DNA of 64,000 nt from an uncultured virus (IMG/VR IMGVR_UViG_3300037307_000895) (IMGVR_UViG_3300037307_000895); one strand, 5' to 3'. Numbered from the stretch's first letter, positions 2,922 through 43,656 are shown. The notes: a model not told the origin generated them from the sequence alone. Made by a program: numbers and translations.

Positions 2922-3275
2922 ATGAAAATTAGAAAGGTATTTGAGTTAGTAGATTATGAGGAAGTAGATTTATGGAGACCGATAGGACAATATTGGAAAA
3001 CTAATGAAATGGATTCCGTGGAAATAAAAAAATTGTGTAAAATTTTTCCACAATTAAGAAAGCCACATGAAAATGAAAAAGGGTTTACGGTTAAAACTAA
3101 ACTCATTTATGATAGTAAGGATGGTAGAGTGGATATAGATATATTAAAAAATGATGATGAATGGTTTTTTGTTAAGGTTATAAAAGGTGATGTGTTATAT
3201 GGTAAAACAAATTACTATAAATGTGACCAATTTGAAGGATTAATAAAATTAATAAAAGAAAAAATTATAAAATGA
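2922..3275 (+). CDS. hypothetical phage protein
   Basis: N-terminus MKIRKVFE; C-terminal YYKCDQFEGL; TAATATATA upstream. Confidence 0.6.
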   Translation: MKIRKVFELVDYEEVDLWRPIGQYWKTNEMDSVEIKKLCKIFPQLRKPHENEKGFTVKTKLIYDSKDGRVDIDILKNDDEWFFVKVIKGDVLYGKTNYYKCDQFEGLIKLIKEKIIK

Positions 3276-3331
3276 CAAACATTAAAAACATAAAGAAAAC
3301 TAAAAAACGAATACGAGTGGTTCGATGGTAA
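3272..3331 (+). CDS. attenuator leader peptide (Lys-rich)
   Basis: MTNIKNIKKTKKRIRVVRW; ATGA overlap with the upstream stop; GAGTGGTTCG pairs with the terminator arm. Confidence 0.75.
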   Translation: MTNIKNIKKTKKRIRVVRW

Positions 3332-3351
3332 GATATTGCCTAAACGGTAAT

Positions 3352-3389
3352 AACCCGAATCACTCTAAAAAGATGATTCGGGTTTTTTT
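3352..3389 (+). terminator. intrinsic terminator (attenuator)
   Basis: AACCCGAATCA...TGATTCGGGTT plus T tract. Confidence 0.85.
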
Positions 3390-3393
3390 ATTT

Positions 3394-3487
3394 GCTCTCG
3401 TTCGCTTAGTCAGATCCAAAGCAGCTGGCTTTTAACCAGCAGAGGTAACCAAGTCCTCGACCGTAGGTTTGAATCCTACCGGGAGCA
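3394..3487 (+). tRNA. tRNA-Lys(UUU) with long variable arm
   Basis: GCTCTCG/CGGGAGC, GCTGG-CTTTTAA-CCAGC, GAGG/CCTC variable stem. Confidence 0.8.
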
Positions 3488-3497
3488 CAAAACATAT

Positions 3498-3571
3498 TCC
3501 CCCGTAGCAAACAGGTTGTATTGCAACGGTCTTTTAAACCGTAGGGTCTGGTTCAATTCCAGACGGGGGAA
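3498..3571 (+). tRNA. tRNA-Lys(UUU)
   Basis: TCCCCCG/CGGGGGA, ACGGT-CTTTTAA-ACCGT. Confidence 0.9.
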
Positions 3572-3572
3572 C

Positions 3573-3660
3573 TAATCTAGGAGTTGTGGGTTCGAGTCCC
3601 ACCAGGCCCACAAATTTTTTAAAATGGGCTTGTAACTCAACTGGCAGAGTACTAGACTTT
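3573..3660 (+). tRNA. circularly permuted tRNA, probably Lys(UUU): 3' half 3573-3610, 5' half 3626-3660
   Basis: Joined halves give GGGCTTG/CAGGCCC, ACTC/GAGT, CTAGA-CTTT|TAA-TCTAG and GTGGG-TTCGAGT-CCCAC. Confidence 0.75.
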
Positions 3661-3732
3661 GGATTCATATGATAATGGTTAGTCAATTCGGCTCTTACCC
3701 GAAGAGTCTCGGTTCGAATCCGAGTGGATCCA
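3661..3732 (+). tRNA. tRNA-Lys(CUU)
   Basis: GGATTCA/TGGATCC, TTCGG-CTCTTAC-CCGAA. Confidence 0.88.
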
Positions 3733-3771
3733 CTGTTGTATAGGTAGAGTGCCTTTCTTAATATATAGTAT

Positions 3772-4644
3772 ATGAGAAGGCACTATAGTGATATATTTTT
3801 AAGTAAAATAGATTGGGTTGAGATTCAATCATTTTATGATGAAGGAAATTTTTATAACGATATAATAAAAAAATTTAATGTTAAAAGTAATGTATTAAAT
3901 GAGGCGATAAAACTTGGACTCATAAAAATGAGAACATTATCAGAATCAATAAGGATGTCCAAAAGAAGAAAAACATATAAACATACACAAGAAACAAAAG
4001 ATAAAATATCAAAAATAAGAAAAGAATATTTAGAAAAAAATCCAAATAAAGTTCCATATTTACTCAACCACAGTAGTAAAGAATCGTATCCAGAAAAATA
4101 TTTTACAGAAGTATTTGAAAAAGAGAAAATAGAAGTTGTTAAAAAACATAGAGTTAAATTATATGAATTAGATTTTTGTATTTTAGATAAAAAAATTGAT
4201 ATAGAAATAGATGGGACACAGCATTATTATGATAAAAAAATTGTAGAAAGTGATAAAAAAAGAACAAAATTTTTAGAAGATAATGGTTGGGATGTTATAA
4301 GAATAGATTGGAGAAAATATCAAAAACTAGATAAGCTTAATAAAGAACTATTCATCAAAAATTTAAAAAATTATATTAATGAGTTATCAATTAATAAACC
4401 AATAATTACTATAATGCAAAAAAAATCAAATGTGGTTGAATCATTATGTATATGCGGAAAACCTAAAAAGTTAAAGTCAAAAAATTGTAATAAATGTAGG
4501 GGTATTAACGATAGAAAAGTTAATAGACCGTCACATGAACAACTATTACAAGAAATAAAAGAATTGGGATATTGTGGTACTGGTAAAAAATATGGAGTGA
4601 GTGATAACGCAATTAGAAAATGGATAAAAAGTTATAATAATTAA
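3772..4644 (+). CDS. DUF559/Vsr-like (PD-(D/E)XK) putative homing endonuclease with C-terminal HTH
   Basis: YELDF..IDIEIDGTQH..D.KR..FL...GW.VIRI; NUMOD-like HTQETKDKISK; KYGVSDNAIRKW. Confidence 0.75.
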   Translation: MRRHYSDIFLSKIDWVEIQSFYDEGNFYNDIIKKFNVKSNVLNEAIKLGLIKMRTLSESIRMSKRRKTYKHTQETKDKISKIRKEYLEKNPNKVPYLLNHSSKESYPEKYFTEVFEKEKIEVVKKHRVKLYELDFCILDKKIDIEIDGTQHYYDKKIVESDKKRTKFLEDNGWDVIRIDWRKYQKLDKLNKELFIKNLKNYINELSINKPIITIMQKKSNVVESLCICGKPKKLKSKNCNKCRGINDRKVNRPSHEQLLQEIKELGYCGTGKKYGVSDNAIRKWIKSYNN

Positions 4645-6725: not shown

Positions 6726-8847
6726 ATTCTTTTTTTAGTATTTGAGGTTTATCGATCACCTCATCACTTTTTATAAAGTTGAATTTTTCTATAGATAATA
6801 ATTGTTGTGTCTTTTCGAAATTTTCATCTTTTATCATAAAATTCTTTTCTCTTTTTCTAATTAAATTATTGGATGATATACTACTAAAAGCACCCATAAG
6901 TGCATATAAGTTAATGTCAATTGGATTATTTCTAAAAATTTGTAAAAGCTTAGACGGCAATTCGCTAAGCCAATCATATTTGAAAACTTTCCATTTTTCC
7001 ATTAAATCAAAATATCTCTCAAATATTAATTCATTTGTCCATTTGGGACTATGTTGCCCAACAACTTCTCCAAAGAGAAGTGTTTCGTATCCATCGTTTT
7101 GTAATCTCATCATCTGATCCACCTCACAGGATATAATTTCCAAATTATATGGGTAATTCCTTAATATATTATGCTTATACCCTTTAATTCCATATATATT
7201 GAAATCTAAATGTATATCTCTTAATTTAAAAGCTACATTACAGATATTATCATCACTACTTTTTATAGATTCATAAATTGTTTCAATAGAATTTTCCTCT
7301 AATATCATATCCTCATCAACTTGTATATAATATTCGGTTTCACAGGTATCTATCATCTCTTGGAATGCCTTTGACATTGGAGCTACATTAACAACTTCTT
7401 TAATATTAAAAATACAATTTTGATTTTTTAAAGCATTTAAACAATCTGAATAGTTAGGATTTTCACCAGATCTAATAATAAAAACAGTTAAATCTTTTTT
7501 CAAATCTCTTTTATTTAATCCTAAAAAGAAATCAGCAAATTTCATTGCAGTTTTCTTATAAGTAAAATCTTTTAAAATAACTTCTCTAGCCTTTTTGCCA
7601 ACTTCTTTACATTTAGATCTATTCTTTTTTAATTTTTTTAAGATTTTAACAAAGTCATTTTTATTTTTACCCGTAAAACAAGGTATTAACTTAGACAATT
7701 CATTATTATTTCTTATTAACATAGGAACTTCACACAATCCAGCTTCTAAAAATGTTTGCGGACCTCCTTCAAAATCGCTAAAATTTATACAAACGTCCGC
7801 TTTATTATATTCATTAACAAGTTCCGAATTTGGCATATTAGTACAAGTAATTAATTTAACTCCTGCTTCCTTACATATCCACTGAATATCTTTATAATTT
7901 TTTACTTTTCTGTTTTTATTACCAACAAATATGGCAGTAAATTCAACATTTTTGACATTTTTTATAGGATAAAACAATTCTTCATTGGTGGCATCAGTAA
8001 TAACTTCATATCTAAAATCATCATTTTTTACCTCACTAAGTATTGAATTTTTAAGATAGTCATTAGCGAATATTCCTCCCCTACAATCAGAAAACATACT
8101 TCCCAATTTTGCCACATTATAGTATTCGTTTTCTAACCAAAATGCAGAATAACATCCTCTTATTACATTTTTTCTGTTCAAAACTTTTTCTTCTGCTTCA
8201 AAAAAAACATAAATATAGTCCCATTCATCATAGTTAATTATATAACTTCCTCTTGAAATGTCAATTATATATGCTATTTCATATTTTATTTTATCGGGAT
8301 ATGGATTATAATTTATAATAGCATTTGCTATATTATCAAAAGCCCATCCCTTAGTATCAGGAATAAGTAATATTTTTAATCTATCATCTTTCTCTTCAAC
8401 TACCATTTGAATATTATCTATATTCTTTGGTTTTTCAACTTTCTTTGATTTTATTTTACGAATAACATATTCAATGAATTTAATATTTGACTCAAATGGA
8501 TTAATAATTCTTTTAAAGAAATAAAAATTATTTTCAGATCTTATTACATCGTTTTTATATGTTTTTTTACATTCGTATAAAATAATGTCATTTATTTCAT
8601 AATCGGGTCTAATATAAATAAAATAATCTTCCCTATGTAATTTCTTTAAATAATTTACAAATTCGATATTAGAATAATTTTTATTGAATACTTTAATTTT
8701 GTTAATATTAGATAACTTATTATCATTAAAGTCAGAACAGACGGATATTCCAGTAACTAGCTTACTTTCTGAGATTTTTCTTAAATTATTTAGAATTTTA
8801 TCGTAATCTTCAATATCGCTACGAACAATTTTAGTTATTACTACCAT
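6694..8847 (-). CDS. glycosyltransferase (GT4-like plus GT-A-like domains)
   Basis: SDFEGGPQTFLEAG (GT-B) and YIQVDEDMIL (DxD). Confidence 0.75.
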   Translation of the reverse strand: MVVITKIVRSDIEDYDKILNNLRKISESKLVTGISVCSDFNDNKLSNINKIKVFNKNYSNIEFVNYLKKLHREDYFIYIRPDYEINDIILYECKKTYKNDVIRSENNFYFFKRIINPFESNIKFIEYVIRKIKSKKVEKPKNIDNIQMVVEEKDDRLKILLIPDTKGWAFDNIANAIINYNPYPDKIKYEIAYIIDISRGSYIINYDEWDYIYVFFEAEEKVLNRKNVIRGCYSAFWLENEYYNVAKLGSMFSDCRGGIFANDYLKNSILSEVKNDDFRYEVITDATNEELFYPIKNVKNVEFTAIFVGNKNRKVKNYKDIQWICKEAGVKLITCTNMPNSELVNEYNKADVCINFSDFEGGPQTFLEAGLCEVPMLIRNNNELSKLIPCFTGKNKNDFVKILKKLKKNRSKCKEVGKKAREVILKDFTYKKTAMKFADFFLGLNKRDLKKDLTVFIIRSGENPNYSDCLNALKNQNCIFNIKEVVNVAPMSKAFQEMIDTCETEYYIQVDEDMILEENSIETIYESIKSSDDNICNVAFKLRDIHLDFNIYGIKGYKHNILRNYPYNLEIISCEVDQMMRLQNDGYETLLFGEVVGQHSPKWTNELIFERYFDLMEKWKVFKYDWLSELPSKLLQIFRNNPIDINLYALMGAFSSISSNNLIRKREKNFMIKDENFEKTQQLLSIEKFNFIKSDEVIDKPQILKKEYVKNGTSKLG

Positions 8848-11573: not shown

Positions 11574-12949
11574 ATGAAAAGTATTAATAAAGGTGATAAA
11601 GTAAAAATGACAGAAAAGTTGAAAATATCTTTGATGTCGAATGGTTGTGAAGATCATGTAATTGAATTTGGAAATTGTATAGGTATTGTCGAAGATAGGT
11701 GTTATCCAAATATTAATGAAGCTACAGAAGTTAATGTCAGGTGGCAGCCATCAGGTCTTAGATATGGATACTTTCCAGATGAATTAGAAAAAATTAAAGA
11801 CTAAATGTTATGAAAAACAAAGATATAAATTGGCTCAACGATAAGATTCAAGATATCAAAAAGAGAAAAAGAAGTCTTGAAATGCTTATAGATCCTGAAT
11901 TGAAAAAGAAAATTAGGAAAGATTTAAAGCGTGAATATCGTTCTGTCAAAAGATCAGAAAAGCAGAATGTGGATAAACACATTAAAGAAGAAATTAACAA
12001 ATACAACAATTAATTATGAAATTAACTCAAAAAGATTTCCAAGAAGGACAAGTTTTAACTTGTGTAAAATTAAATTGTGATGGTTATAATGGGGGTGATG
12101 TAGATGATGAAAGATTGATACTCGGCGAAAAATATACAATCACAGATTTGGACTTTCATTTTCCCGACAGAGTTTGTGTTAAATTGAAAGGTCCTTATTA
12201 TTTTCACGAAGAATTTGTTCCAATTGAATGTTTTTGTGATACGGCTTATATTCGTAATGAAAAGATTAAAGAAATTTTAAAATGAAAGATATAGAAAAAT
12301 ATAAAATTGAAACTAAAGTAGAACCAATAGCAGCATATTTCACCCTGTTGATGGGTATGTTAAAAGAGCCTTTTATGTCGTCAGACCTTAAATATCTGAT
12401 TATACAAGGCTCTTACACAAAACTGATGGATATGGGTTATTCTAGAGAAGAAGTTGCTGATTTTGCTGATAAGGTTTCTGTATTTGTTAAAGAGAATATT
12501 GAAATAAACTCTTTTATGGGATAAAAAATTATTATAAAAATGAAAAGCGAAGTTTGTAATCATGATAGTGTGAAAAATGTGTCTTCTCATAGACTAAATG
12601 ATCATATTGTTTTTATACAAGTGACTTGTATATTATGTGGAATGATTAGATATGAAACAAAAGATTTAAAAACGGGTTCAGTAACAACATCTATATGGTC
12701 AAAAAAATGAAAATAGTAAGAGGTAAAACTCCTTATCTTATGGACGCTATTAGCGTCTTGAGTGTTAGAAAATTATTTGATGATAATGCGGAATGCAAAT
12801 TTGATTTTAATTGTGTGTCCAAAAAATTAACAATTTTAGATAATTACAAAACACAACAAGACTATATGTACGGAAAGGAATACCGAGTAGAATACTTACC
12901 AGACTTACAATATATCAGAGAAGAAAAAATTAAAGAAATATTAGAATGA
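11574..12949 (+). CDS. cluster of short hypothetical proteins (11574-11804, 11810-12013, 12016-12285, 12282-12524, 12695-12949)
   Basis: Tightly packed co-oriented ORFs; two end in the R.EKIKEIL tag. Confidence 0.55.
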
Positions 12950-13605
12950 AATCATATCCGAAAATAGAACATTATAATAAGGCTCCCTTTGGAGAACATT
13001 GCTATGCCTTCTACAAACATGATGGTTCTAACTTCCGTGCTGAGTGGGGTAGAAAAAGAGGTTGGTATAAATGGGGTACAAGAAATGTAATGATTGATAA
13101 AAATACTCCTTTTTATGGAGAAGCTATTGATATCTTTTTGAATAAATATGGTCAAAATTTAGATGATGTATTCAGAATTGAATATCCTAAAGTTGATAGT
13201 TTTGTTGTCTTTGGTGAATTTTTAGGTCCGAATTCTTTCGCTGGCAAACACGTTGAAACTGATAATATGGATGTAATTATATTTGATGTTAATCAACACA
13301 AAAGAGGTTTCTTACCACCTAAAGAATTCATTGAAAATTTTGGTCATCTTGATATTCCTAAAATTATCTATCAAGGAGAATACAACCACGAATTAATCAA
13401 AAAGGTAAAAGCCAACCAATTTGGATTAGAAGAAGGTGTAGTCTGTAAAGGTGTGATTAAAACGAAAAAAGAAGGTGAAGTTGTTTGGATGAATAAAATA
13501 AAAACCAATCAATGGATCGAAAAAGTAAAAATATTGTATGGTGAGAAGGCACTGATTGAAGAATTCAATAGTGACTCTAAAATATTAAAAGAATATGAAT
13601 ACTAA
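12946..13605 (+). CDS. ATP-dependent RNA ligase-like nucleotidyltransferase
   Basis: Motif I KHDGSN, FGEF, IFDV, EEGVVCK, KIK. Confidence 0.75.
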   Translation: MKSYPKIEHYNKAPFGEHCYAFYKHDGSNFRAEWGRKRGWYKWGTRNVMIDKNTPFYGEAIDIFLNKYGQNLDDVFRIEYPKVDSFVVFGEFLGPNSFAGKHVETDNMDVIIFDVNQHKRGFLPPKEFIENFGHLDIPKIIYQGEYNHELIKKVKANQFGLEEGVVCKGVIKTKKEGEVVWMNKIKTNQWIEKVKILYGEKALIEEFNSDSKILKEYEY

Positions 13606-14320
13606 AAAGAGAATATTCAGTTTAAGGGGTATATCACCTGATTATCCAAGAATACCACATTTAGATAAAAAAATATCTAATATGACACACGATGATATTC
13701 TTTCTGATAATTCTATTGTCTATCCCATAGACGGATATGTTCAAGAAAAAATAGATGGTGCTAACTTGGGTGTTTCATGGTATAAAAATGGACCGATTGT
13801 TAGAAATAGAAATAATATCTTAAAGAAAGGTTATTCTAAAATACACACACCTGCAAAAGAGCAATTCAAATCTACATGGAATTGGGTTCATGATAATAGA
13901 AAAGATATTCAAATAATATCTGAAAAATTAATGTCTGAGATAACAATTTACGGCGAGTGGATGATTGCACAACATTCTATTGAATATAATAAACTCCCTG
14001 ATTGGTTTATCGCTTATGATATATGGGTAGTAGAAGATAATAAATTTTTGTCTCCAAAGAAAGTGGAAGAACTACTTTCTAAGACAAACATATCTTATAT
14101 TAAACCACATAAGACAGTATTAAATGATACTAATGATGTGATTAGGTGGTCAGAAATGCCATCTGATTATAGAAATGGTGTTCGTGAGGGAATTGTTATT
14201 AAAACTGTGGAAGGTGATTATATTAAAGATACTTATAAGGTAGTTAATAAGCACTTTGTTCGTAGAGAAGATTTTAATGAAAAATTAATTAGAAATAAAT
14301 TAATAATTAATGATTATTAA
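13595..14320 (+). CDS. ATP-dependent RNA ligase (Rnl2-like)
   Basis: QEKIDGAN, YGEW, AYDI, REGIVIK, YKVVN. Confidence 0.85.
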   Translation: MNTKKRIFSLRGISPDYPRIPHLDKKISNMTHDDILSDNSIVYPIDGYVQEKIDGANLGVSWYKNGPIVRNRNNILKKGYSKIHTPAKEQFKSTWNWVHDNRKDIQIISEKLMSEITIYGEWMIAQHSIEYNKLPDWFIAYDIWVVEDNKFLSPKKVEELLSKTNISYIKPHKTVLNDTNDVIRWSEMPSDYRNGVREGIVIKTVEGDYIKDTYKVVNKHFVRREDFNEKLIRNKLIINDY

Positions 14321-15646: not shown

Positions 15647-18118
15647 TTATTTTATTTTCACATTAAGTGATAGGTTTATAGTTCTTTCTTGGCGATTATT
15701 CATCAAAGGTAATTCTCTATCTTTTTGATAGAACTTCATATTTTGACCTAATATATTTCCAAGTGATAACTTAAATTCAAAATTATTATTTAATTTATAA
15801 ATTGTTGTTATATCAATTATATCTCTTGAATTTTCATAAATATCTGAATATCCCTGAAATCCAACTAATGATATTCTTTCTCCGGTTCTATTATAAGAAA
15901 TGGTTGAAGATAATTTTCTATAATTAAAAGAAGATGCGATATTAATATTATAAGGAGATTGTCCTTGTAAAGGTCTATTTCCAGTTTCGGTTTTAACATT
16001 TGAATAAATTAAAGAAACATTTGAATATAGTGTCATCCATTTAAAAACATTCTTTCTAAAATCTAATTCTCCACCAAATAAAATAGCACTCTTTGAATTT
16101 TTATAACTTAATAATAAATTAGAAGGAACAGATCCAGCATCTACAATCATTTCTATTGGATTGTCGAATTGTTTACCAAATAATCCAAATGAAAATGTTT
16201 CAGAATTACTAATATTCTTCTCCCACTTCATATCAACATTTGAAATATTTGCGATGGTTAAATTAGGATTGCCTATAATTTGTGCATTTCTAACGAAGTC
16301 ATAATAAGTGAAATTAGATATTTCTCTTAATTCTGGTCTAGAAACGCTTCTACTAGCTGAAAATCTTATTTTATTCTTTTCAGTTATCATATATGATAAG
16401 TTAATAGAAGGTAATAATGACGGATAATTATTTTTTACAATAACATCACTACCACCAAAGTCAGAAGTTTCTACTCCGAAAGAATTATATTCAAATCTTA
16501 ACCCACCATTAAACTTCCACTTATTTAAGCTTTTATCATACATTACATAAGAAGACATAGTATAAAAATTAGCAGAATATCTATCGGTATTATTTGTTAT
16601 CTCTTCTAATAAATCTTTAGATTGATATCTAAATACTCTTGCTTGAAAATATCTATTCTTATTTAAATAAGAAACACCTGTTTTAAATCCACGATTTTCA
16701 TAATTTAATGTGCCATTAAATCCACTTTCATACATTGTGCTCCAAAATCTATAACTATCTCTCCAAACAGTACTAAATGTGTCCGTTGTTCCTATAGATC
16801 TCTGTAAAGGATTTATTCTGTAATCTGGTTGATCTCTGGTAATAACATTATATCCTATTGTACCATTGATATTATCTTTTTTGAAATCGATTAGTGAGTT
16901 AAATAATAGTTTATTAACTGTATTAGAAGATTGTAATCTAACATCTTGTAAATTATCATAGTTTTCTCCAGTTCTATTGATAAAGGAATTTTCTGAATTA
17001 TAATTGAATATATTTTTCCAATTTAACTTAATTCCTTTATTATAAGATAAATTTAATAATCCATTAATAGAATAAGATTGAACATAACCAGTGTCATTAT
17101 AATTATATGCCAATTCATTAGGTGAGAAATATTCTAATCTATTGGAATAAATTACAGAATTATTCCTAGAAGAGGATACACTAAATATTGAAGAAACATC
17201 TCCTATTCTTTGTGATCCATTTAAATTCAAATTTAAATTTGGATATGTATTTAAAGAATATGAATTTGGATTTGATATTAAAGTTGTATAAGTCTTTCTA
17301 TCAGAAATGTCAGAAGATTTAAATTTTTGAGTAGAGGGAAAATTATTAGGAAAATTTACTGATTTAACTGATTCAAAATTTTCATTAAATAGTAGATTAT
17401 TAGTCCCTATTAAAGCACTTAAGTTTAAAGAATTTACATATGTTGATTTTGTAGTTAATTGTACTAAACCACCAGAAAAATCTCCCGGCAAATTAGCTGA
17501 TGGTGATTTTATAACAATAACATTATCGATTATTGAATTCGGTATAATGTCATATGAAAAAGTTCTTCTATCTGGCTCAGTTGATGGTAATAATCCCCCA
17601 TCCATCATTGATAAATTATATCTGTCTGCCAATCCTCTAACGACAATAAACTTATCATCTTGAACTGTGATTCCACTAATTCTTCTTAAAGATTCTCCCA
17701 TATTTCTATCCGGAGTCTTTTTTATAGTCTCAATAGAAATACCATCGGATACTGAAGATGAATTTCTAATGGTTGATATAACCGATGTTACTGTTTCTTT
17801 TTTGTATGTACCCTTTACTTCTACAGCATTTAAAGTAGAAACCTTTTTATCCAAATTAAAGATGATTGTAGTATCTGATTTTATGTTTAACACCTGTTTA
17901 AAATCAAAAGTTGAAATGTGTGTTATTGAAATTGTATTTGTTCCTTTTACTAAATTTATTTGGAATTTTCCATTGGAATCTGATAATACATACGATTTAT
18001 TTAAAATAATAGCTGCCCCTTCTAGTGGCTTTCCCTCCGACTCAACTACACCATTCAATACTTGACCTTGTACCAAAAATGAAGTAATTAAAAGCCACAA
18101 TGTTAATAATATTCTCAT
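15647..18118 (-). CDS. TonB-dependent receptor
   Basis: Signal peptide, carboxypeptidase-like N domain, plug (VRGLADRYN), GNPNL, beta-barrel. Confidence 0.9.
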   Translation of the reverse strand: MRILLTLWLLITSFLVQGQVLNGVVESEGKPLEGAAIILNKSYVLSDSNGKFQINLVKGTNTISITHISTFDFKQVLNIKSDTTIIFNLDKKVSTLNAVEVKGTYKKETVTSVISTIRNSSSVSDGISIETIKKTPDRNMGESLRRISGITVQDDKFIVVRGLADRYNLSMMDGGLLPSTEPDRRTFSYDIIPNSIIDNVIVIKSPSANLPGDFSGGLVQLTTKSTYVNSLNLSALIGTNNLLFNENFESVKSVNFPNNFPSTQKFKSSDISDRKTYTTLISNPNSYSLNTYPNLNLNLNGSQRIGDVSSIFSVSSSRNNSVIYSNRLEYFSPNELAYNYNDTGYVQSYSINGLLNLSYNKGIKLNWKNIFNYNSENSFINRTGENYDNLQDVRLQSSNTVNKLLFNSLIDFKKDNINGTIGYNVITRDQPDYRINPLQRSIGTTDTFSTVWRDSYRFWSTMYESGFNGTLNYENRGFKTGVSYLNKNRYFQARVFRYQSKDLLEEITNNTDRYSANFYTMSSYVMYDKSLNKWKFNGGLRFEYNSFGVETSDFGGSDVIVKNNYPSLLPSINLSYMITEKNKIRFSASRSVSRPELREISNFTYYDFVRNAQIIGNPNLTIANISNVDMKWEKNISNSETFSFGLFGKQFDNPIEMIVDAGSVPSNLLLSYKNSKSAILFGGELDFRKNVFKWMTLYSNVSLIYSNVKTETGNRPLQGQSPYNINIASSFNYRKLSSTISYNRTGERISLVGFQGYSDIYENSRDIIDITTIYKLNNNFEFKLSLGNILGQNMKFYQKDRELPLMNNRQERTINLSLNVKIK

Positions 18119-21959: not shown

Positions 21960-22044
21960 GTCACGGTATGCAAATTGGTTAAGCGACCAGACTTTCAATC
22001 TGGGAACCGAATGGTTCGTGCGGGTTCGAACCCCGTCCGTGATA
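21960..22044 (+). tRNA. tRNA-Glu(UUC) with long variable arm
   Basis: CCAGA-CTTTCAA-TCTGG; GAACC/GGTTC variable stem. Confidence 0.85.
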
Positions 22045-22051
22045 CTAAAAC

Positions 22052-24741: not shown

Positions 24742-25260
24742 ATGAGAAAACTACAAAAAATTTGTATAAATTACGGAGTAAATGGTATTTTAGATAAAAA
24801 TCTAATAGACATATCAATGAATGAGTTGAAATTGATAACTAATCAAACCCCAACAATAACAAGGAGCAAAAAAGACATATCTAATTTCAAACTAAGAAAA
24901 GGAATGGAATTGGGTGTAAAAGTAACTCTGAGAGGTAGGAAAATGTATCAATTTTTAGATCATCTAATAGATTGTTTATTAAATTCATACGAATTTAAAG
25001 GATTAAATGCTAATTCATTTGATAAGCATGGAAATTACTCAATGGGTATTAAAGACCAAAGAATATTTACTGAAATTAATATAGATAATATCAAAAATGT
25101 TAATGGAATGGACATTACATTTGTAACAAACTGTAATAAAAGTGATTCTTTAATTTTACTAAATAAATTAAACCTACCATTTACAGTCGATAGAGAATTC
25201 AATATTACTAAAAGTGATAGAATAATAAAGTTTAATAAAAAATATAAATCAAGTGAGTAA
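24742..25260 (+). CDS. rplE: 50S ribosomal protein uL5 homolog
   Basis: KLQKICINYGV, SKKDISNFKLRKGMELGVKVTLRG, SFDKHGNYSMGIKDQRIFTEI, GMDITFVT. Confidence 0.9.
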   Translation: MRKLQKICINYGVNGILDKNLIDISMNELKLITNQTPTITRSKKDISNFKLRKGMELGVKVTLRGRKMYQFLDHLIDCLLNSYEFKGLNANSFDKHGNYSMGIKDQRIFTEINIDNIKNVNGMDITFVTNCNKSDSLILLNKLNLPFTVDREFNITKSDRIIKFNKKYKSSE

Positions 25261-33551: not shown

Positions 33552-35483
33552 ATGAGGAAAATTATTTTATCTATTTTCACATTAATTTCTATCAGTACAT
33601 ACTCACAAACAGATACATCTAAAGTTGTTCAACTTGAAAATGTATCTGTTATGGGTATTAGAAGTGATAGAAAAACTCCAATATCTCAAAAAATAGTAAC
33701 CAAAAAACAAATTGAAAGAACCTATCAAGGTCAAGAAGTACCTATTCTTATAATGGAAAAAACTCCATCTGTTACATCATATATGGATGGTGGTCACCCA
33801 CAAGGATATACATACTTTAGGCTACGTGGTATTGACCAAACAAGGATTAATATGACACTTGATGGGGTTCCATTAAATGAACCCGAAGATCAAGGTGTTT
33901 ATACATCTAATTATCCAGGATTCACAAACTTTATTCAATCAATGCAAGTTCAAAGGGGAGTTGGTACTTCTACTAATGGTGTTGCGTCATATGGGGGTTC
34001 AATAAATTTTGTTACTAAATCAGGTTTTGAAAAAGAATCTGAAATTGCATTAGGATATGGATCTTTTAATACTATGAGATTCAATTTCTCAAATGGAACA
34101 GGTTTAAGTAAAAAGAATTTTGCTCTTTACACCAATTTATCTCTATATCAAACTGATGGGTATAGGTATAATTCTGGTGGAGATGGTGGATCTATATTTA
34201 TTAGTGGAGGTAAATATGGTGACAAAGATATCATTAAATTTTCTGCATTTAGTGGCATATCAAGAAACGGAATGGCTTGGCTTGGTGTATCTGAGGAAGA
34301 TATAAAAATAGATAAAAAAACAAATTATAATCAAAATGATGCTTGGGATGATTTTAGACAAACATTTACTCAAGGGAAATGGATAAGGAAAATAAATAGT
34401 AAAAGTAAATTCTCTACTGGATTATTTTATAATCGTTTAGACGGTTCTTATGACTATTTCATGAGTGGAAATCGATCTTTGTTTTTAGGATCCAACTTCT
34501 TTGGTTTAATCAATAATTATCAGTATAAAAGTAAAAACTTTAAATTTGATGCGGGGTTAAATATAAATACATATAATCGTGATCACAAAAATATTGAAGC
34601 CGACTATAAAAATAAAGGATTTAGAAATGAATTAAGCATTTTTTCTAAATTAAGTTATGATATTAGTAAATTTACTCTATTTACGGATCTTCAATATAGA
34701 TATAGTGATTTTTCATATGAAGGTGATGTCTCAATGGACAAACTAAAGTGGAATTTCTTTAATCCTAAATTCGGCATAGTTTATAATAAAAATAGTTATA
34801 TGAACTATTATTTTTCTATTGGAAAAACAGGTAGAGAACCAACCAGAACAAACTTATTTGGTGGATCAGATAATTTAACAACTTTAGAAAATGTATCACC
34901 CGAATCAGTAATCGATTATGAATTGGGCTTTAATAGGCGTCTGGAAAAATCGAATATACAAGCCAACTTATATTATATGGATTTCGAAAATGAAATAACT
35001 TTATTAGGTGCTATAGGAACTAATTCGCTACCTTTGATGACAAATGTTAGTAAAAGTTTTAGAAGTGGGATTGAACTGGATTATACAAGAACATCTGCTT
35101 TTGATATCATGTCAACCACTACAACTATAAACTACTCATTTAATAGAATTATAGATGGTGATACTAAATTTCAACCTCTATATACACCCGATTTAATAAT
35201 TAGTCAATCACTTGGTTTTAATTTTCATAAAATATTTCTTGAGGGAAACTTTAGATATAATAGCAAATCATATATCAGTTTAGATAATAAATATTCTATT
35301 CCTGACTTTGTAGTATTTGGAGCAAATGTGAGATATGATTATAAAAAATGGTCAGTATTAGGCCAATTAAATAATATTTTTAGTAATAATTACTACACAA
35401 TGGGATATGTAGTTGATAATGTAAAGTACTTATACACCAATGCTCCTGTTAGTTTTTACATAACAATAAAAAGGAAAATATGA
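33552..35483 (+). CDS. TonB-dependent receptor (vitamin/nucleoside uptake type)
   Basis: RLRGIDQTRINMTLDGVPLNEPE, QVQRGVGTSTNG plug; adjacent to pnuC. Confidence 0.9.
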   Translation: MRKIILSIFTLISISTYSQTDTSKVVQLENVSVMGIRSDRKTPISQKIVTKKQIERTYQGQEVPILIMEKTPSVTSYMDGGHPQGYTYFRLRGIDQTRINMTLDGVPLNEPEDQGVYTSNYPGFTNFIQSMQVQRGVGTSTNGVASYGGSINFVTKSGFEKESEIALGYGSFNTMRFNFSNGTGLSKKNFALYTNLSLYQTDGYRYNSGGDGGSIFISGGKYGDKDIIKFSAFSGISRNGMAWLGVSEEDIKIDKKTNYNQNDAWDDFRQTFTQGKWIRKINSKSKFSTGLFYNRLDGSYDYFMSGNRSLFLGSNFFGLINNYQYKSKNFKFDAGLNINTYNRDHKNIEADYKNKGFRNELSIFSKLSYDISKFTLFTDLQYRYSDFSYEGDVSMDKLKWNFFNPKFGIVYNKNSYMNYYFSIGKTGREPTRTNLFGGSDNLTTLENVSPESVIDYELGFNRRLEKSNIQANLYYMDFENEITLLGAIGTNSLPLMTNVSKSFRSGIELDYTRTSAFDIMSTTTTINYSFNRIIDGDTKFQPLYTPDLIISQSLGFNFHKIFLEGNFRYNSKSYISLDNKYSIPDFVVFGANVRYDYKKWSVLGQLNNIFSNNYYTMGYVVDNVKYLYTNAPVSFYITIKRKI

Positions 35484-36022
35484 GTTTAATAGAAATAGGA
35501 GCAGTTGTGTTTAGTTTTCTATCAGTCATAATGGCTGTTAAGAGAAGTTTGTCAACATGGATATTTGGAATATTAGGTATAGTATTTTATGGAATATTAT
35601 TCTTTCAAAGAGAGATATTCTCAAATATGTTATTACAAATGATTTTTTTAGTTCAATCATTTGTTGGTTTATATGAGTGGAAAACAAATAGAAATCAGGG
35701 CGAACTTATAGTTACTAAAATGTCAATGAAAGAATGGGTAAGTTATCTTGCTACTCTTAATATACTAATCATAGTTATGTGTCTAATGTTTGAAAAATTA
35801 GATGCCATTACAACATCAGTTAGTCTGATGGCTAATGTTTTATTAATGAATAGAAAATTAGAAAATTGGTTTTTTTGGATAATAGCGGATGTTGTCTATA
35901 TTATAATGTTCATTGAACAAAAATTATATTTGTCATCTGGTTTATATTTTGTATTTTTAATTACTTGTATTTTAGGATATTTCAAATGGAAAAACAAATT
36001 CAATGACAAAAATCTATCATAA
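35480..36022 (+). CDS. pnuC: nicotinamide riboside transporter PnuC
   Basis: Multi-TM; GLYEW, RKLENWFFWIIAD. Confidence 0.88.
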   Translation: MSLIEIGAVVFSFLSVIMAVKRSLSTWIFGILGIVFYGILFFQREIFSNMLLQMIFLVQSFVGLYEWKTNRNQGELIVTKMSMKEWVSYLATLNILIIVMCLMFEKLDAITTSVSLMANVLLMNRKLENWFFWIIADVVYIIMFIEQKLYLSSGLYFVFLITCILGYFKWKNKFNDKNLS

Positions 36023-36281
36023 AGGAAATGTTTGGGAGGTTAAATATTGTAATGAAGAACTAAAAAGTAAAAAAAGTACTTTTCATGCTCTTGTTTATGC
36101 TAAAATGGAAGACTTTGACTTGGAAGAATCAATAGTTTTAGAATATAAGTCTAGATTCTATATATGCTCATCTTTTGGAATAAGAGAATCTATAAGTAAT
36201 GCAGTTGAGTTATATCTAAGTTATTTAGTAGATGAAACAAGGGACATTAAAATTAAATTAATAAATGGTGAAAAAATATAA
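36003..36281 (+). CDS. hypothetical protein with C-terminal tag
   Basis: TRDIKIKLIN. Confidence 0.5.
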   Translation: MTKIYHKGNVWEVKYCNEELKSKKSTFHALVYAKMEDFDLEESIVLEYKSRFYICSSFGIRESISNAVELYLSYLVDETRDIKIKLINGEKI

Positions 36282-37272
36282 ATCAGGGTATGTATTAGGG
36301 AAATTTCTACCCTTTCATTTGGGTCATAAATATCTTATTGATACTGCGGTAGAAAATTGTGATAAAGTTACCGTTTTGGTAGGAACTCTTCCAAAAGAAC
36401 CGATTCCTGGTGCTCTTAGATATCAATGGGTTAAAGATACTTATAAAAATAATGACAATGTTACTGTTAAATGGTGTAATGAAATATTACCCCAACAACC
36501 AGAAGAGCACCCAGATTTTTGGAATATTTGGGTCGATGTGGTAAAAAGGTATTGTCCTGATGATATTGACGTTATATTTACCTCGGAAAGTTATGGTGAC
36601 CCGTATGCCAAGCATTTAGGAATAAAACATCATTTGGTAGATATTGAGAGAAAGAAATATCCTATATCAGGAACCCTGTGTAGAAATGAAACTTTTAAAC
36701 ATTGGGATTTGTTAACAGACGAAGCAAAGCCTTATTTTGTTAAAAAAGTTGCTATTATGGGGCCTGAGTCAACAGGCAAATCCGAGTTAACAAAAAAATT
36801 AGCTCATCATTTTGAAACAGAATTTGTTGAAGAATATGGCAGGACTGTTTATGAAGAAAATGGTAATAGTGTAAGTATATCAGATTTTATCAAAATATCT
36901 GTCGGAAGACAAAAGATAGAAGATGAGAAAATTAAAAAGGCGAATAAAATTTTATTCTGTGATACAGAAGATATAACAACCTATTATCTTTTGAAAGAAT
37001 ATTATCCAAAAAACTGGGTAGAAGTTAAACATTGGTTTTATCATAGAATGAATGATTATAGAAATTATGACTTGTATATTTTATTAAAGCCCGATTGTAA
37101 TTGGGTTCAAGATGGAACAAGAACTTTTGAAAATAATAGATGGGAACAATATGAAATAATTAAATCATTTTTGCTACAAAAAAATTGTAACTTTGTAGAG
37201 ATTGGGGGAGATTGGAATAATAGATTTAAAGAATCAATAAAAATAATTAATAAATTATGGATATCGAATTAA
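36265..37272 (+). CDS. nadR: NadR-like NMN adenylyltransferase / nicotinamide riboside kinase (no HTH)
   Basis: GKFLPFHLGH (HxGH), ISGT, GPESTGKS, EYGR, WVQDGTR. Confidence 0.92.
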   Translation: MVKKYKSGYVLGKFLPFHLGHKYLIDTAVENCDKVTVLVGTLPKEPIPGALRYQWVKDTYKNNDNVTVKWCNEILPQQPEEHPDFWNIWVDVVKRYCPDDIDVIFTSESYGDPYAKHLGIKHHLVDIERKKYPISGTLCRNETFKHWDLLTDEAKPYFVKKVAIMGPESTGKSELTKKLAHHFETEFVEEYGRTVYEENGNSVSISDFIKISVGRQKIEDEKIKKANKILFCDTEDITTYYLLKEYYPKNWVEVKHWFYHRMNDYRNYDLYILLKPDCNWVQDGTRTFENNRWEQYEIIKSFLLQKNCNFVEIGGDWNNRFKESIKIINKLWISN

Positions 37273-41609: not shown

Positions 41610-41697
41610 GGCTGAGTGGTGGAAGTAAACATGGTAGACACACTAGTCTTAGAAACTAGTACCGAAAGGTGTGAGGGTTCGAGTCCCTCCTTGGTCA
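41610..41697 (+). tRNA. tRNA-Leu(UAG)
   Basis: CTAGT-CTTAGAA-ACTAG. Confidence 0.88.
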
Positions 41698-41709: not shown

Positions 41710-41788
41710 GCCTCCGTAGTCGAGTGTGCCTTCTAAGCATTTAATCGTAACGGAACTGAAAATGTGGGTTCGAATCCCACCGGAGGTT
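41710..41788 (+). tRNA. tRNA-Arg(UCU)-like, rearranged D-arm
   Basis: GCCTCCG/CGGAGGT, GTGC-CTTCTAA-GCAT, CGA/TCG followed by TAACGG. Confidence 0.65.
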
Positions 41789-41793
41789 CAAAT

Positions 41794-41878
41794 GGATGGG
41801 TTGCTTTAGAGGCCGAAAAGTCTGGGCTGTTAACCCAGTGTCGCAAGACCGCCGTGGGTTCGAATCCCACCCCATCCT
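41794..41878 (+). tRNA. tRNA-Asn(GUU), long variable arm
   Basis: CTGGG-CTGTTAA-CCCAG. Confidence 0.85.
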
Positions 41879-41883
41879 CACAT

Positions 41884-42137: not shown

Positions 42138-42223
42138 TGATCGGTGGCCCGAGTGGCGAAGGGTCCGGCCTGTTAAGCCGACGTAGTAAAATACCACCGT
42201 GGGTTCGAGTCCCACCCGATCAG
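42138..42223 (+). tRNA. tRNA-Asn(GUU), long variable arm
   Basis: CGGC-CTGTTAA-GCCG. Confidence 0.85.
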
Positions 42224-42229
42224 CAATAA

Positions 42230-42314
42230 GCGCGGATGGTTCGAGTGGTCGAAGACGACAGTCTGCAAAACTGTATCCGAAAGGTCATCGTGAGTTCAAA
42301 TCTCACTCCGCGCT
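42230..42314 (+). tRNA. tRNA-Cys(GCA), long variable arm
   Basis: ACAGT-CTGCAAA-ACTGT, U73. Confidence 0.87.
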
Positions 42315-42320
42315 CAACAA

Positions 42321-42403: not shown

Positions 42404-42491
42404 GGGTCTATGGTGTAATGGCTAAACATCCTTCCCTTACAAGGAAGAGACGAGAAGTATGATCTTGGTTCGAATCCAAGTAGACCCACCA
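42404..42491 (+). tRNA. tRNA-Val(UAC), long variable region
   Basis: CTTCC-CTTACAA-GGAAG, encoded CCA. Confidence 0.85.
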
Positions 42492-42496
42492 AAAAT

Positions 42497-42579
42497 GCCG
42501 ATGTGGCTCAGTGGCGACAGCAATGGTTTTGTAAACCATCACCGTAAGGTCATCGGGGGTTCGAGTCCCTCCATCGGCT
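42497..42579 (+). tRNA. tRNA-Thr(UGU), long variable arm
   Basis: ATGGT-TTTGTAA-ACCAT. Confidence 0.85.
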
Positions 42580-42588
42580 CAGAAATAG

Positions 42589-42710: not shown

Positions 42711-42782
42711 TGGAGAGTAGCTCAGTTGGTAGAGCACCGGACTGATTTCCGGTGGTCGATGGTTCGAGTCCATCCTCTCCAA
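42711..42782 (+). tRNA. tRNA-Ile(GAU)-like with 6-nt anticodon loop
   Basis: CCGGA-CTGATT-TCCGG, otherwise canonical. Confidence 0.6.
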
Positions 42783-42788
42783 CAAATT

Positions 42789-43569: not shown

Positions 43570-43655
43570 GCCGCTGTGAACCGATGTGGTAATGGTGCCT
43601 CCCTCATAAGGAGGTTGGTTTTATCCTATTGCTGGTTCGAGTCCAGCCAGCGGTA
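43570..43655 (+). tRNA. tRNA-Met/Ile2(CAU), long variable region
   Basis: CCTCC-CTCATAA-GGAGG. Confidence 0.82.
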
Positions 43656-43656
43656 C

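Follow-up and report, generated by a model that had tools for sequence, protein, structure and literature searches.

Within the window, i.e. the whole 64-kb stretch of DNA that was analysed, positions 3573–3660 contain a tRNA-Lys(UUU) gene whose two halves stand in circularly permuted order, and which is wedged without spacing between two ordinary tRNA-Lys genes. Based on its recurrence in related loci with changes on both sides of many base pairs, we are highly confident that this element is genuine and conserved, and that selection maintains its tRNA fold. As to its purpose, the sequence suggests, as a reading that we favour tentatively and that falls somewhat short of probable, a selected permuted gene from which the processing of the neighbouring tRNAs would free a tRNA nicked between positions 35 and 36, to be sealed by an RNA ligase of the phage. 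The relatives of the TrpRS-like gene in the neighbourhood are found on IMG/VR contigs of 482–519 kb and on the 642-kb uncultured phage LR756502.1, and the window is thus assigned to a huge phage.

Architecture and setting of the permuted element

All parts of the element lie on the plus strand, the tRNA 3' half being followed by a 15-nt spacer and then by the 5' half, as had been proposed in the initial annotation of this DNA. The 3' half (3573–3610) opens with TAA, corresponding to tRNA positions 36–38, and continues with the 3' strand of the anticodon stem (3576–3580), a 5-nt variable loop (3581–3585), the T arm (3586–3602), the 3' strand of the acceptor stem (3603–3609) and the discriminator A3610. 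The linker (3611–3625) consists of C3611 and a 14-nt A/T-rich spacer resembling an ordinary inter-tRNA spacer, and leads to the 5' half (3626–3660), which comprises the 5' strand of the acceptor stem (3626–3632), U8 and A9, the D arm (3635–3650), A26, the 5' strand of the anticodon stem (3652–3656) and CTTT as positions 32–35. Both halves were delimited from the sequence, from ARAGORN applied to the joined halves and from the covariation between them. Pairing of all four stems, likewise proposed at the outset, is complete: 21 of the 21 cloverleaf pairs are formed, one of them being G-U, and several of the letters usually conserved in tRNAs are present (U8, the D-loop GG and the T-loop TTCGA).

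ARAGORN calls no gene at the element as it stands in the window. Once the halves are joined by script, the program returns a tRNA-Lys(ttt) of 73 nt with a canonical 7-nt loop, and a shifted join returns Arg(tct), so that both of the outcomes foreseen earlier, Lys(UUU) and Arg(UCU), were reproduced. Adding C3572 to the join expands the anticodon loop to 8 nt; the 7-nt loop is hence obtained only if C3572 remains on the upstream tRNA. A strict scanner demanding the T-loop motif and 21 of 21 pairs in permuted order found one match in the window, compared with one in 100 mononucleotide shuffles and eight in 200 shuffles of 20-nt blocks, figures in which neither the zero spacing nor the canonical loop nor the orthologues are considered. 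The thermodynamic fold (z −2.69) keeps the outer stem and the acceptor stem and lacks the T and D arms, so that covariation is relied on for both arms.

ARAGORN identifies 40 tRNA genes in the 64-kb window, all on the plus strand. The first gene of the Lys array is a tRNA-Lys(UUU) of 95 nt with a long variable arm (3394–3488; Rfam tRNA, 47.4 bits). The element then fills the entire space between a second tRNA-Lys(UUU) (3498–3572; Rfam tRNA, 58.4 bits over 3498–3571), which has a U1-A72 pair and the discriminator A3571 followed by C3572, and a tRNA-Lys(CUU) (3661–3733; Rfam tRNA, 60.5 bits). The abutment described earlier is exact: position 3660 is the last of the 5' half and 3661 is G1 of the downstream tRNA, while A3571 and C3572 immediately precede the 3' half, which starts at 3573. 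A gap of 0 on both sides is unique to the element, all 17 of the other close tRNA pairs being 4–9 nt apart.

The discriminator is followed by C in 40 of the 40 window tRNAs, the full CCA being encoded in three of them, and the trailers after this C are A/T-rich and begin with AAA or TAA. Such regularity suggests a 3' processing rule peculiar to the phage or its host. The constant C also suggests that C74 stays on the upstream tRNA, as the 7-nt loop needs. The element's own 3' side (A, C and an A/T-rich spacer ending in T before G1) matches the inter-tRNA junctions of the window.

Several of the phage tRNA-Lys genes open with U1-A72 instead of G1-C72 (window 3498–3572; in related loci L005:1615–1703, L194:~3853–3941, and L004:7363–7447 and 7527–7598), and in 3 of the 3 element-bearing loci the permuted element immediately follows such a U1-A72 tRNA. 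Long variable arms are in bacteria normally confined to Leu, Ser and Tyr tRNAs. Nine tRNAs of the window are 84–95 nt long (His, Lys, Glu, two Asn, Cys, Val, Thr and Met; located at 1597–1687, 3394–3488, 21960–22045, 41794–41879, 42138–42224, 42230–42315, 42404–42491, 42497–42580 and 43570–43656), their extra length after the anticodon representing such arms, and several of them adjoin a tRNA of normal length for the same amino acid. A further tRNA (42711–42783) is given the 2-letter anticodon 'ga' by ARAGORN, reflecting a short anticodon loop, yet scores 66 bits in Rfam, and two weak Rfam tRNA matches of 31–33 bits (41615–41691 and 41710–41788) are uncalled by ARAGORN; these three may be aberrant or decaying tRNAs.

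Since tRNA arrays are repetitive, and since the 19-kb contig that spans the whole of the stretch at issue in the DNA runs comes from what is possibly the source run of this very DNA, one might suspect an assembly artefact in which pieces of two tRNA genes were fused. In the same DNA runs, other organisms have normal-order tRNA-Lys genes with very similar halves. However, 3427–3643 is matched with 0 differences by a 217-nt contig that stems from another sample in a different study, which provides independent confirmation of the upstream junction as well as of the 3' half, the linker and the first part of the 5' half. The range 3639–3789 is likewise matched with 0 differences by a contig from a third run, though this contig reaches only 22 nt to the left of the 3660|3661 junction, and the same order recurs in L005 and L194, both taken from other assemblies. 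Misassembly, which the initial annotation had named as a possible refutation, is itself refuted for the upstream junction and the linker, and we consider the chance of an artefact to be negligible.

Orthologues, compensatory changes and possible origin

Relatives of the locus were defined as the 13 IMG/VR and 45 metagenome loci encoding the neighbouring TrpRS-like protein. Two of these 58 loci contain the same element (L005:1704–1791, 88 nt; L194:3942–4035, 94 nt), so that the search of relatives for the same order, which had been put forward as a check, succeeded and moreover revealed compensatory changes. In both loci the upstream tRNA ends with AAC immediately followed by TAA, and CTTT is likewise immediately followed by a tRNA-Lys beginning with GGA; in 3 of 3 cases (window, L005 and L194) the script-joined halves are recognised by ARAGORN as tRNA-Lys(UUU). 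The alignment of the window with L005 is ungapped and needed no fitting, and has 42 of 42 stem cells paired with 7 of the 21 pairs changed on both sides. When all three orthologues are aligned by the covariance model, 63 of 63 stem cells are paired and 11 of the 21 pairs are compensatory, i.e. changed on both sides, with the reservation that this alignment is fitted to the structure of the model, which somewhat favours pairing. None of 500 column shuffles was as good, and partners slid by 1–3 columns pair in 31–41% of the cells. Although four of the five anticodon-stem pairs have changed, the three orthologues agree in all seven loop letters (CTTT and TAA) and at both junctions. They also share G1-C72 and the discriminator A. 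The linker measures 15, 15 and 23 nt in the window, L005 and L194, respectively, with 9 of 14 spacer positions identical between the window and L005.

In a comparison of the window with L005, the two halves show identities of 77.5% and 80.6%, with the downstream tRNA at 61.0% and the TrpRS-like gene at 80.0%; in a comparison of L005 with L194, the identity is 90.9% for the downstream tRNA but only 67.5% and 74.3% for the halves. Judged from these values, the element may have been exchanged between phages as a unit.

The stem mismatches and loop drift characteristic of a pseudogene are absent, with 63 of 63 cells paired and 7 of 7 loop letters constant. A deletion remnant of two tandem tRNAs in free decay, the second refutation that had been envisaged, is ruled out by the compensatory changes in L005 and L194, taken together with the constancy of the loop and of the junctions across the three orthologues.

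The distribution of the element is narrow. In most of the related loci that reach a Lys array, three or four Lys genes of the ordinary kind are present and the element is missing, many loci being too short to judge. Covariance model R1 produced 215 matches at E values up to 1 over 62 sources, including ordinary junctions between neighbouring tRNAs; since R1 scores such junctions as well, a stem-pairing filter is required to find permuted elements. In four large related genomes, L228 not among them, 17 matches to R1 at E ≤0.001 yielded no permuted element (the scanner was run on all 17 matched loci, and the best alignments were inspected in three; all were ordinary tandem tRNAs). Two further loci with zero spacing are regarded as candidates only, namely L224:1021–1141 (identical in L230:879–999), located between two tRNA-Ser genes, and L228:3265–3343, located after a tRNA-Lys and having Lys/Ser-like neighbours. 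Their anticodon loops at the exact join are non-canonical, comprising 6 or 4 nt in L224/L230 and 8 nt in L228, and the acceptor stem of L228 contains an A1-G72 mismatch.

Searches with short words and patterns returned the following. In the viral collection, the T-arm/acceptor word matched two unrelated tRNAs, the D-arm word gave more than 120 matches, mostly to ordinary phage tRNA-Lys genes, and a gapped junction pattern retrieved L005 again along with one chance match. A pattern of the 5' half plus junction had 0 matches in metagenome DNA, and the 36 loci matched by the T-arm/acceptor word in the genome collection belong to diverse bacteria, are mostly tRNA-Lys(CUU) and tRNA-Leu, and are uninformative on the host. 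Locus L003 lacks both the element and the downstream tRNA; an apparent D-arm remnant after its last tRNA was rejected, being by eye the conserved region that follows the array (window 3734–3790; also in L005).

With respect to origin, L242 contains a tandem pair of Lys(UUU) genes (1447–1626) with identical acceptor and anticodon stems, and in L004 the same kind of upstream tRNA is immediately followed by an intact homologue in normal order, which is 78% identical to the joined halves of L005. Tandem copies are thus a plausible origin of the element. The same two loci lend themselves to the view that the element is a by-product of array turnover, consisting of the inner halves of two tandem tRNA-Lys copies whose outer halves were lost, with selection serving only the processing of the neighbours. 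Arrays differ greatly between relatives, the element is missing from most of them, and the L228 candidate with its A1-G72 mismatch looks degenerate, all of which is consistent with such turnover. However, a by-product would require two precise deletions ending exactly on tRNA borders, and has to be reconciled with (i) the lack of a single unpaired cell among 63 despite 11 pair changes on both sides, (ii) junctions and a break point that are identical in three lineages, and (iii) halves that are about as similar between the window and L005 as the TrpRS-like gene, and far more similar than the downstream tRNA. We therefore judge the by-product view to be improbable.

Proposed maturation and possible roles

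We infer each step of processing, the sealing and the decoding from the observed anatomy, the zero spacing, the compensatory conservation and the presence of ligase-family genes. The Lys array, including the permuted element, would be made as one transcript, and the outer ends of the element would be generated without enzymes of its own. A cut made by RNase P at G1 of the tRNA downstream would leave ...CUUU with a 3'-OH, and 3' maturation of the upstream tRNA, with C74 retained, would leave a 5'-phosphate on UAA.... The RNA thus freed would fold as a cloverleaf nicked between positions 35 and 36. Its acceptor end would probably be opened too, by RNase P, 3' processing and CCA-adding enzymes, since the inner spacer resembles those between the other tRNAs. 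The 3'-OH and 5'-phosphate ends left by RNase P and by endonucleolytic 3' processing are the substrates of ATP-dependent RNA ligases; such a ligase of the phage would finally seal the nick and yield an ordinary tRNA-Lys(UUU).

Two RNA-ligase-family genes had been noted from the sequence, and their assignment is borne out by profile searches. The first (12946–13605, plus strand, 219 aa) matches PHROG 548 'RNA ligase' (E 1.7e-14) and has no Pfam match; the second (13595–14320, plus strand, 241 aa) matches both Pfam PF09414 (E 3.1e-28) and PHROG 548 (E 1.4e-17). Both contain K-x-D-G, which we take to be the ligase motif. The genes lie 9.4 kb downstream of the element, three of this family stand in a row on the 19-kb contig of L005, and we consider the pair in the window to be candidate sealing enzymes. 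The family is present in 5 of 5 related records, including four large genomes (three of them at least 97% complete) in which no element was found, and the ligases are thus not tied to the element. The only solved relative of the second gene product is the Naegleria RNA ligase, to the chains of which it matches weakly (E 0.0085). That enzyme seals nicks in duplexes.

Pfam and PHROG searches also identified, among the other genes of the window, aminoacyl-tRNA synthetase fragments, ribosomal protein L5 and a Thg1-like enzyme, as well as an RNA-repair HAD domain, a polynucleotide-kinase-like ATPase and a metallophosphoesterase. A gene for a DUF559/PD-(D/E)xK-type endonuclease (3772–4644; PHROG 'HNH endonuclease' family 559) follows the Lys array in both the window and L005; it has only distant relatives in the viral collection and resembles the free-standing homing endonucleases of other phage tRNA clusters. 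Elsewhere in the window are encoded two TonB-dependent-receptor-like proteins, a PnuC-type NMN transporter, two ORFs later a NadR-like adenylyltransferase/kinase, and the L5 homologue (15647–18118, 33552–35483, 35480–37272 and 24742–25260).

Upstream of the array, and outside of the permuted RNA, sequence and alignment reveal a Lys-rich mini-ORF of 19 codons, five of which specify Lys (3272–3331, plus strand). Its ATG overlaps the stop codon of ORF 2922–3275, which has no relatives in the viral collection. It is followed by a hairpin with a T-run (3354–3389, plus strand), which ends 4 nt before the first tRNA-Lys, and the 3' strand of which is repeated by the end of the mini-ORF. Both features are conserved in L003, L005 and L194 (leader regions: window 3272–3393, L003:2526–2660, L005:1385–1525 and L194:3722–3860), and both hairpin strands are invariant in 4 of the 4 aligned loci. 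A consensus terminator scan with a loop limit of 8 did not flag the hairpin. Leader and hairpin have the appearance of a leader-peptide attenuator, by which a shortage of Lys-tRNA would open the array, with the mini-ORF presumably being translated and sensing Lys. Combining all of these elements, it is tempting to speculate that the huge phages of this group possess a built-in 'pre-cut' tRNA-Lys(UUU), processed by its flanks and completed by a ligase, in an array switched on by a Lys-codon leader upon Lys-tRNA shortage, a composite scenario which we rate as rather unlikely in its entirety. Switching on might occur, for example, under attack by a defence that cuts tRNA-Lys.

In favour of a pre-split tRNA-Lys(UUU) that is sealed are the canonical loop composed of 4 + 3 nt, the identity letters at the acceptor end and the spacer-like linker, all of which are hard to explain otherwise, along with a type of phage ligase that would be expected to join ends of the predicted kind. 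Against it, an upstream cut right after the discriminator would give an 8-nt loop, the window already has two other tRNA-Lys(UUU) genes, so that the need for a third is not obvious, and the element was seen in only 2 of 58 related loci, with the candidates in L228 and L224/L230 lacking a canonical 7-nt loop at the exact join. Furthermore, the ligases are short, and their sole solved relative, itself a weak match, provides no evidence for the sealing of loops.

The classical target of the anticodon nuclease PrrC is tRNA-Lys(UUU), and this choice of tRNA is one of several observations that fit a different role, in which the element is a non-decoding mimic of a nicked tRNA-Lys. Such a mimic would be generated by the same processing but never sealed, and would have the layout of a YrlA RNA without the Ro60 handle, as a free-standing form of the tRNA-like module found in Y RNAs of bacteria. 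It would act as a ligand with the shape of a tRNA and an open anticodon loop, for example as a decoy or product mimic for a nuclease or sensor of the host directed at tRNA-Lys. The conserved Lys-codon leader and hairpin fit an induction upon Lys-tRNA shortage in this case too, and the non-canonical loops of the L228 and L224 candidates likewise speak for a mimic. YrlA (RF02553) is, moreover, the only non-tRNA Rfam family matching the element, with the same order of T arm, acceptor stem and D arm (cmscan); the match scores 36.1 bits (E 2.5e-6 in a 501-nt search and 0.00032 over the whole window) and is the sole YrlA match in the window. YrlA RNAs are described as non-decoding mimics of tRNA (PMC4201824), an engineered circularly permuted tRNA is reported to act as a nicked-tRNA ligand for RtcR (PMC10159003), and phage tRNAs have been proposed as counter-measures to tRNA-cutting defences (PMC10264068, PMC11555353). 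However, RtcR is reported to prefer a 2',3'-cyclic phosphate, which is not made by RNase P (PMC10159003). The YrlA score is also far under the Rfam gathering threshold of 69, the outer YrlA stem falls in the alignment into the neighbouring tRNAs and contains non-standard pairs, and no Ro60 (TROVE) gene is present among the 83 ORFs of the window or in any of the five related records, three of which are at least 97% complete. Finally, a mimic would have no need for the exact 4 + 3 canonical loop letters, G1-C72, A73 or a spacer-like linker, and its predicted ends are precisely those which the phage's own type of ligase joins. We take the mimic to be a serious possibility, if a doubtful one.

A more literal interpretation of the Rfam result is that the element represents a genuine Y RNA of the YrlA type, which binds a Ro60 protein from either the phage or its host. 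It would account for YrlA being the best non-tRNA match, and the control search found a TROVE gene in Bacteroides thetaiotaomicron, so that Ro60 could be supplied by the host if it belongs to that phylum. This interpretation is nonetheless very improbable: both ends abut tRNAs, leaving no room for the Ro-binding helix, no Ro60 gene is adjacent, TROVE is absent from the five related phage records and the 83 window ORFs, and the score of 36.1 bits stands against a threshold of 69.

Comparison with known systems

Permuted tRNAs of the algal and archaeal type mature via a bulge-helix-bulge motif, a splicing endonuclease and a circular intermediate. Permuted genes are described for the red alga Cyanidioschyzon merolae, green algae and the archaeon Thermofilum pendens (PMC3978253, PMC3218864), and one is described for the algal giant virus BpV1 (PMC3673656). 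The earlier statement that none are known from phages accordingly holds for bacteriophages in the literature that we found, in the titles and abstracts of which no permuted or split tRNA gene of a bacteriophage is described, and does not extend to viruses of algae. Like its algal, archaeal and BpV1 counterparts, the element has the 3' half upstream, a short linker from the 3' to the 5' end and a full cloverleaf assembled from the halves. Unlike the algal and archaeal type, it resides in a bacterial host, its break lies at 35|36, and its ends abut other tRNAs. Since both outer ends thus adjoin the acceptor stems of other tRNAs, with no free flanking sequence, a bulge-helix-bulge cannot form; the ends would instead come from RNase P and 3' processing, and a 3'-OH/5'-phosphate ligase would join them. 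Until now, permuted tRNA genes have been linked to the splicing machinery of archaea and eukaryotes; a selected phage gene whose ends are set by the processing of its neighbours would constitute a second, independent route to a working tRNA. If the reading as a pre-split tRNA holds true, bacterial systems would gain their first permuted tRNA, which would also be the first to mature without a splicing endonuclease. In the tRNA arrays of phages, genes of this kind escape the standard tRNA finders.

The split tRNA genes of Nanoarchaeum equitans are located at separate loci, with complementary leaders that form the splicing motif. Similar to these, the element provides two pairing halves that need to be joined in the anticodon region; unlike these, both halves are found within 88 nt on one strand, in one predicted transcript, and in reversed order. 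Split tRNAs are also mentioned in PMC3218864.

The YrlA family (RF02553), described as a bacterial and phage Y RNA (bioRxiv 10.1101/312249), shares with the element the order of T arm, loop-closed acceptor stem and D arm, and the YrlA of M. smegmatis, which has a 7-bp acceptor stem, is reported to be cut by RNase P and to receive CCA in vivo (PMC4201824). Unlike YrlA, the element retains an anticodon stem that is complete and canonical, along with the two parts of a Lys anticodon loop; it lacks a Ro60-binding helix, is accompanied by no Ro60 gene nearby or in the related records, and scores about half of the family threshold. Sealing by a phage ligase, if it occurs, would give phage RNA ligases a routine job beyond the repair of damage.

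Such repair is exemplified by phage T4, in which tRNA-Lys passes through a cycle of breakage and mending by PrrC, Pnkp and Rnl1. An engineered permuted tRNA has been employed as a stand-in for a nicked tRNA, and is described as being sealed into a circle by the ligase RtcB (PMC10159003); if the element is a mimic of nicked tRNA-Lys, it would represent a natural version of this laboratory tool and a candidate counter-measure to defences that cut tRNA-Lys. With these nicked-tRNA systems the element has in common a base-paired tRNA that is broken in the anticodon loop, the identity of that tRNA as tRNA-Lys(UUU), and a phage RNA ligase as the prospective sealer. In contrast to the T4 cycle, however, the break is written into the gene itself, is placed at 35|36 rather than at 33|34, and would need no healing by kinase or phosphatase before being sealed.
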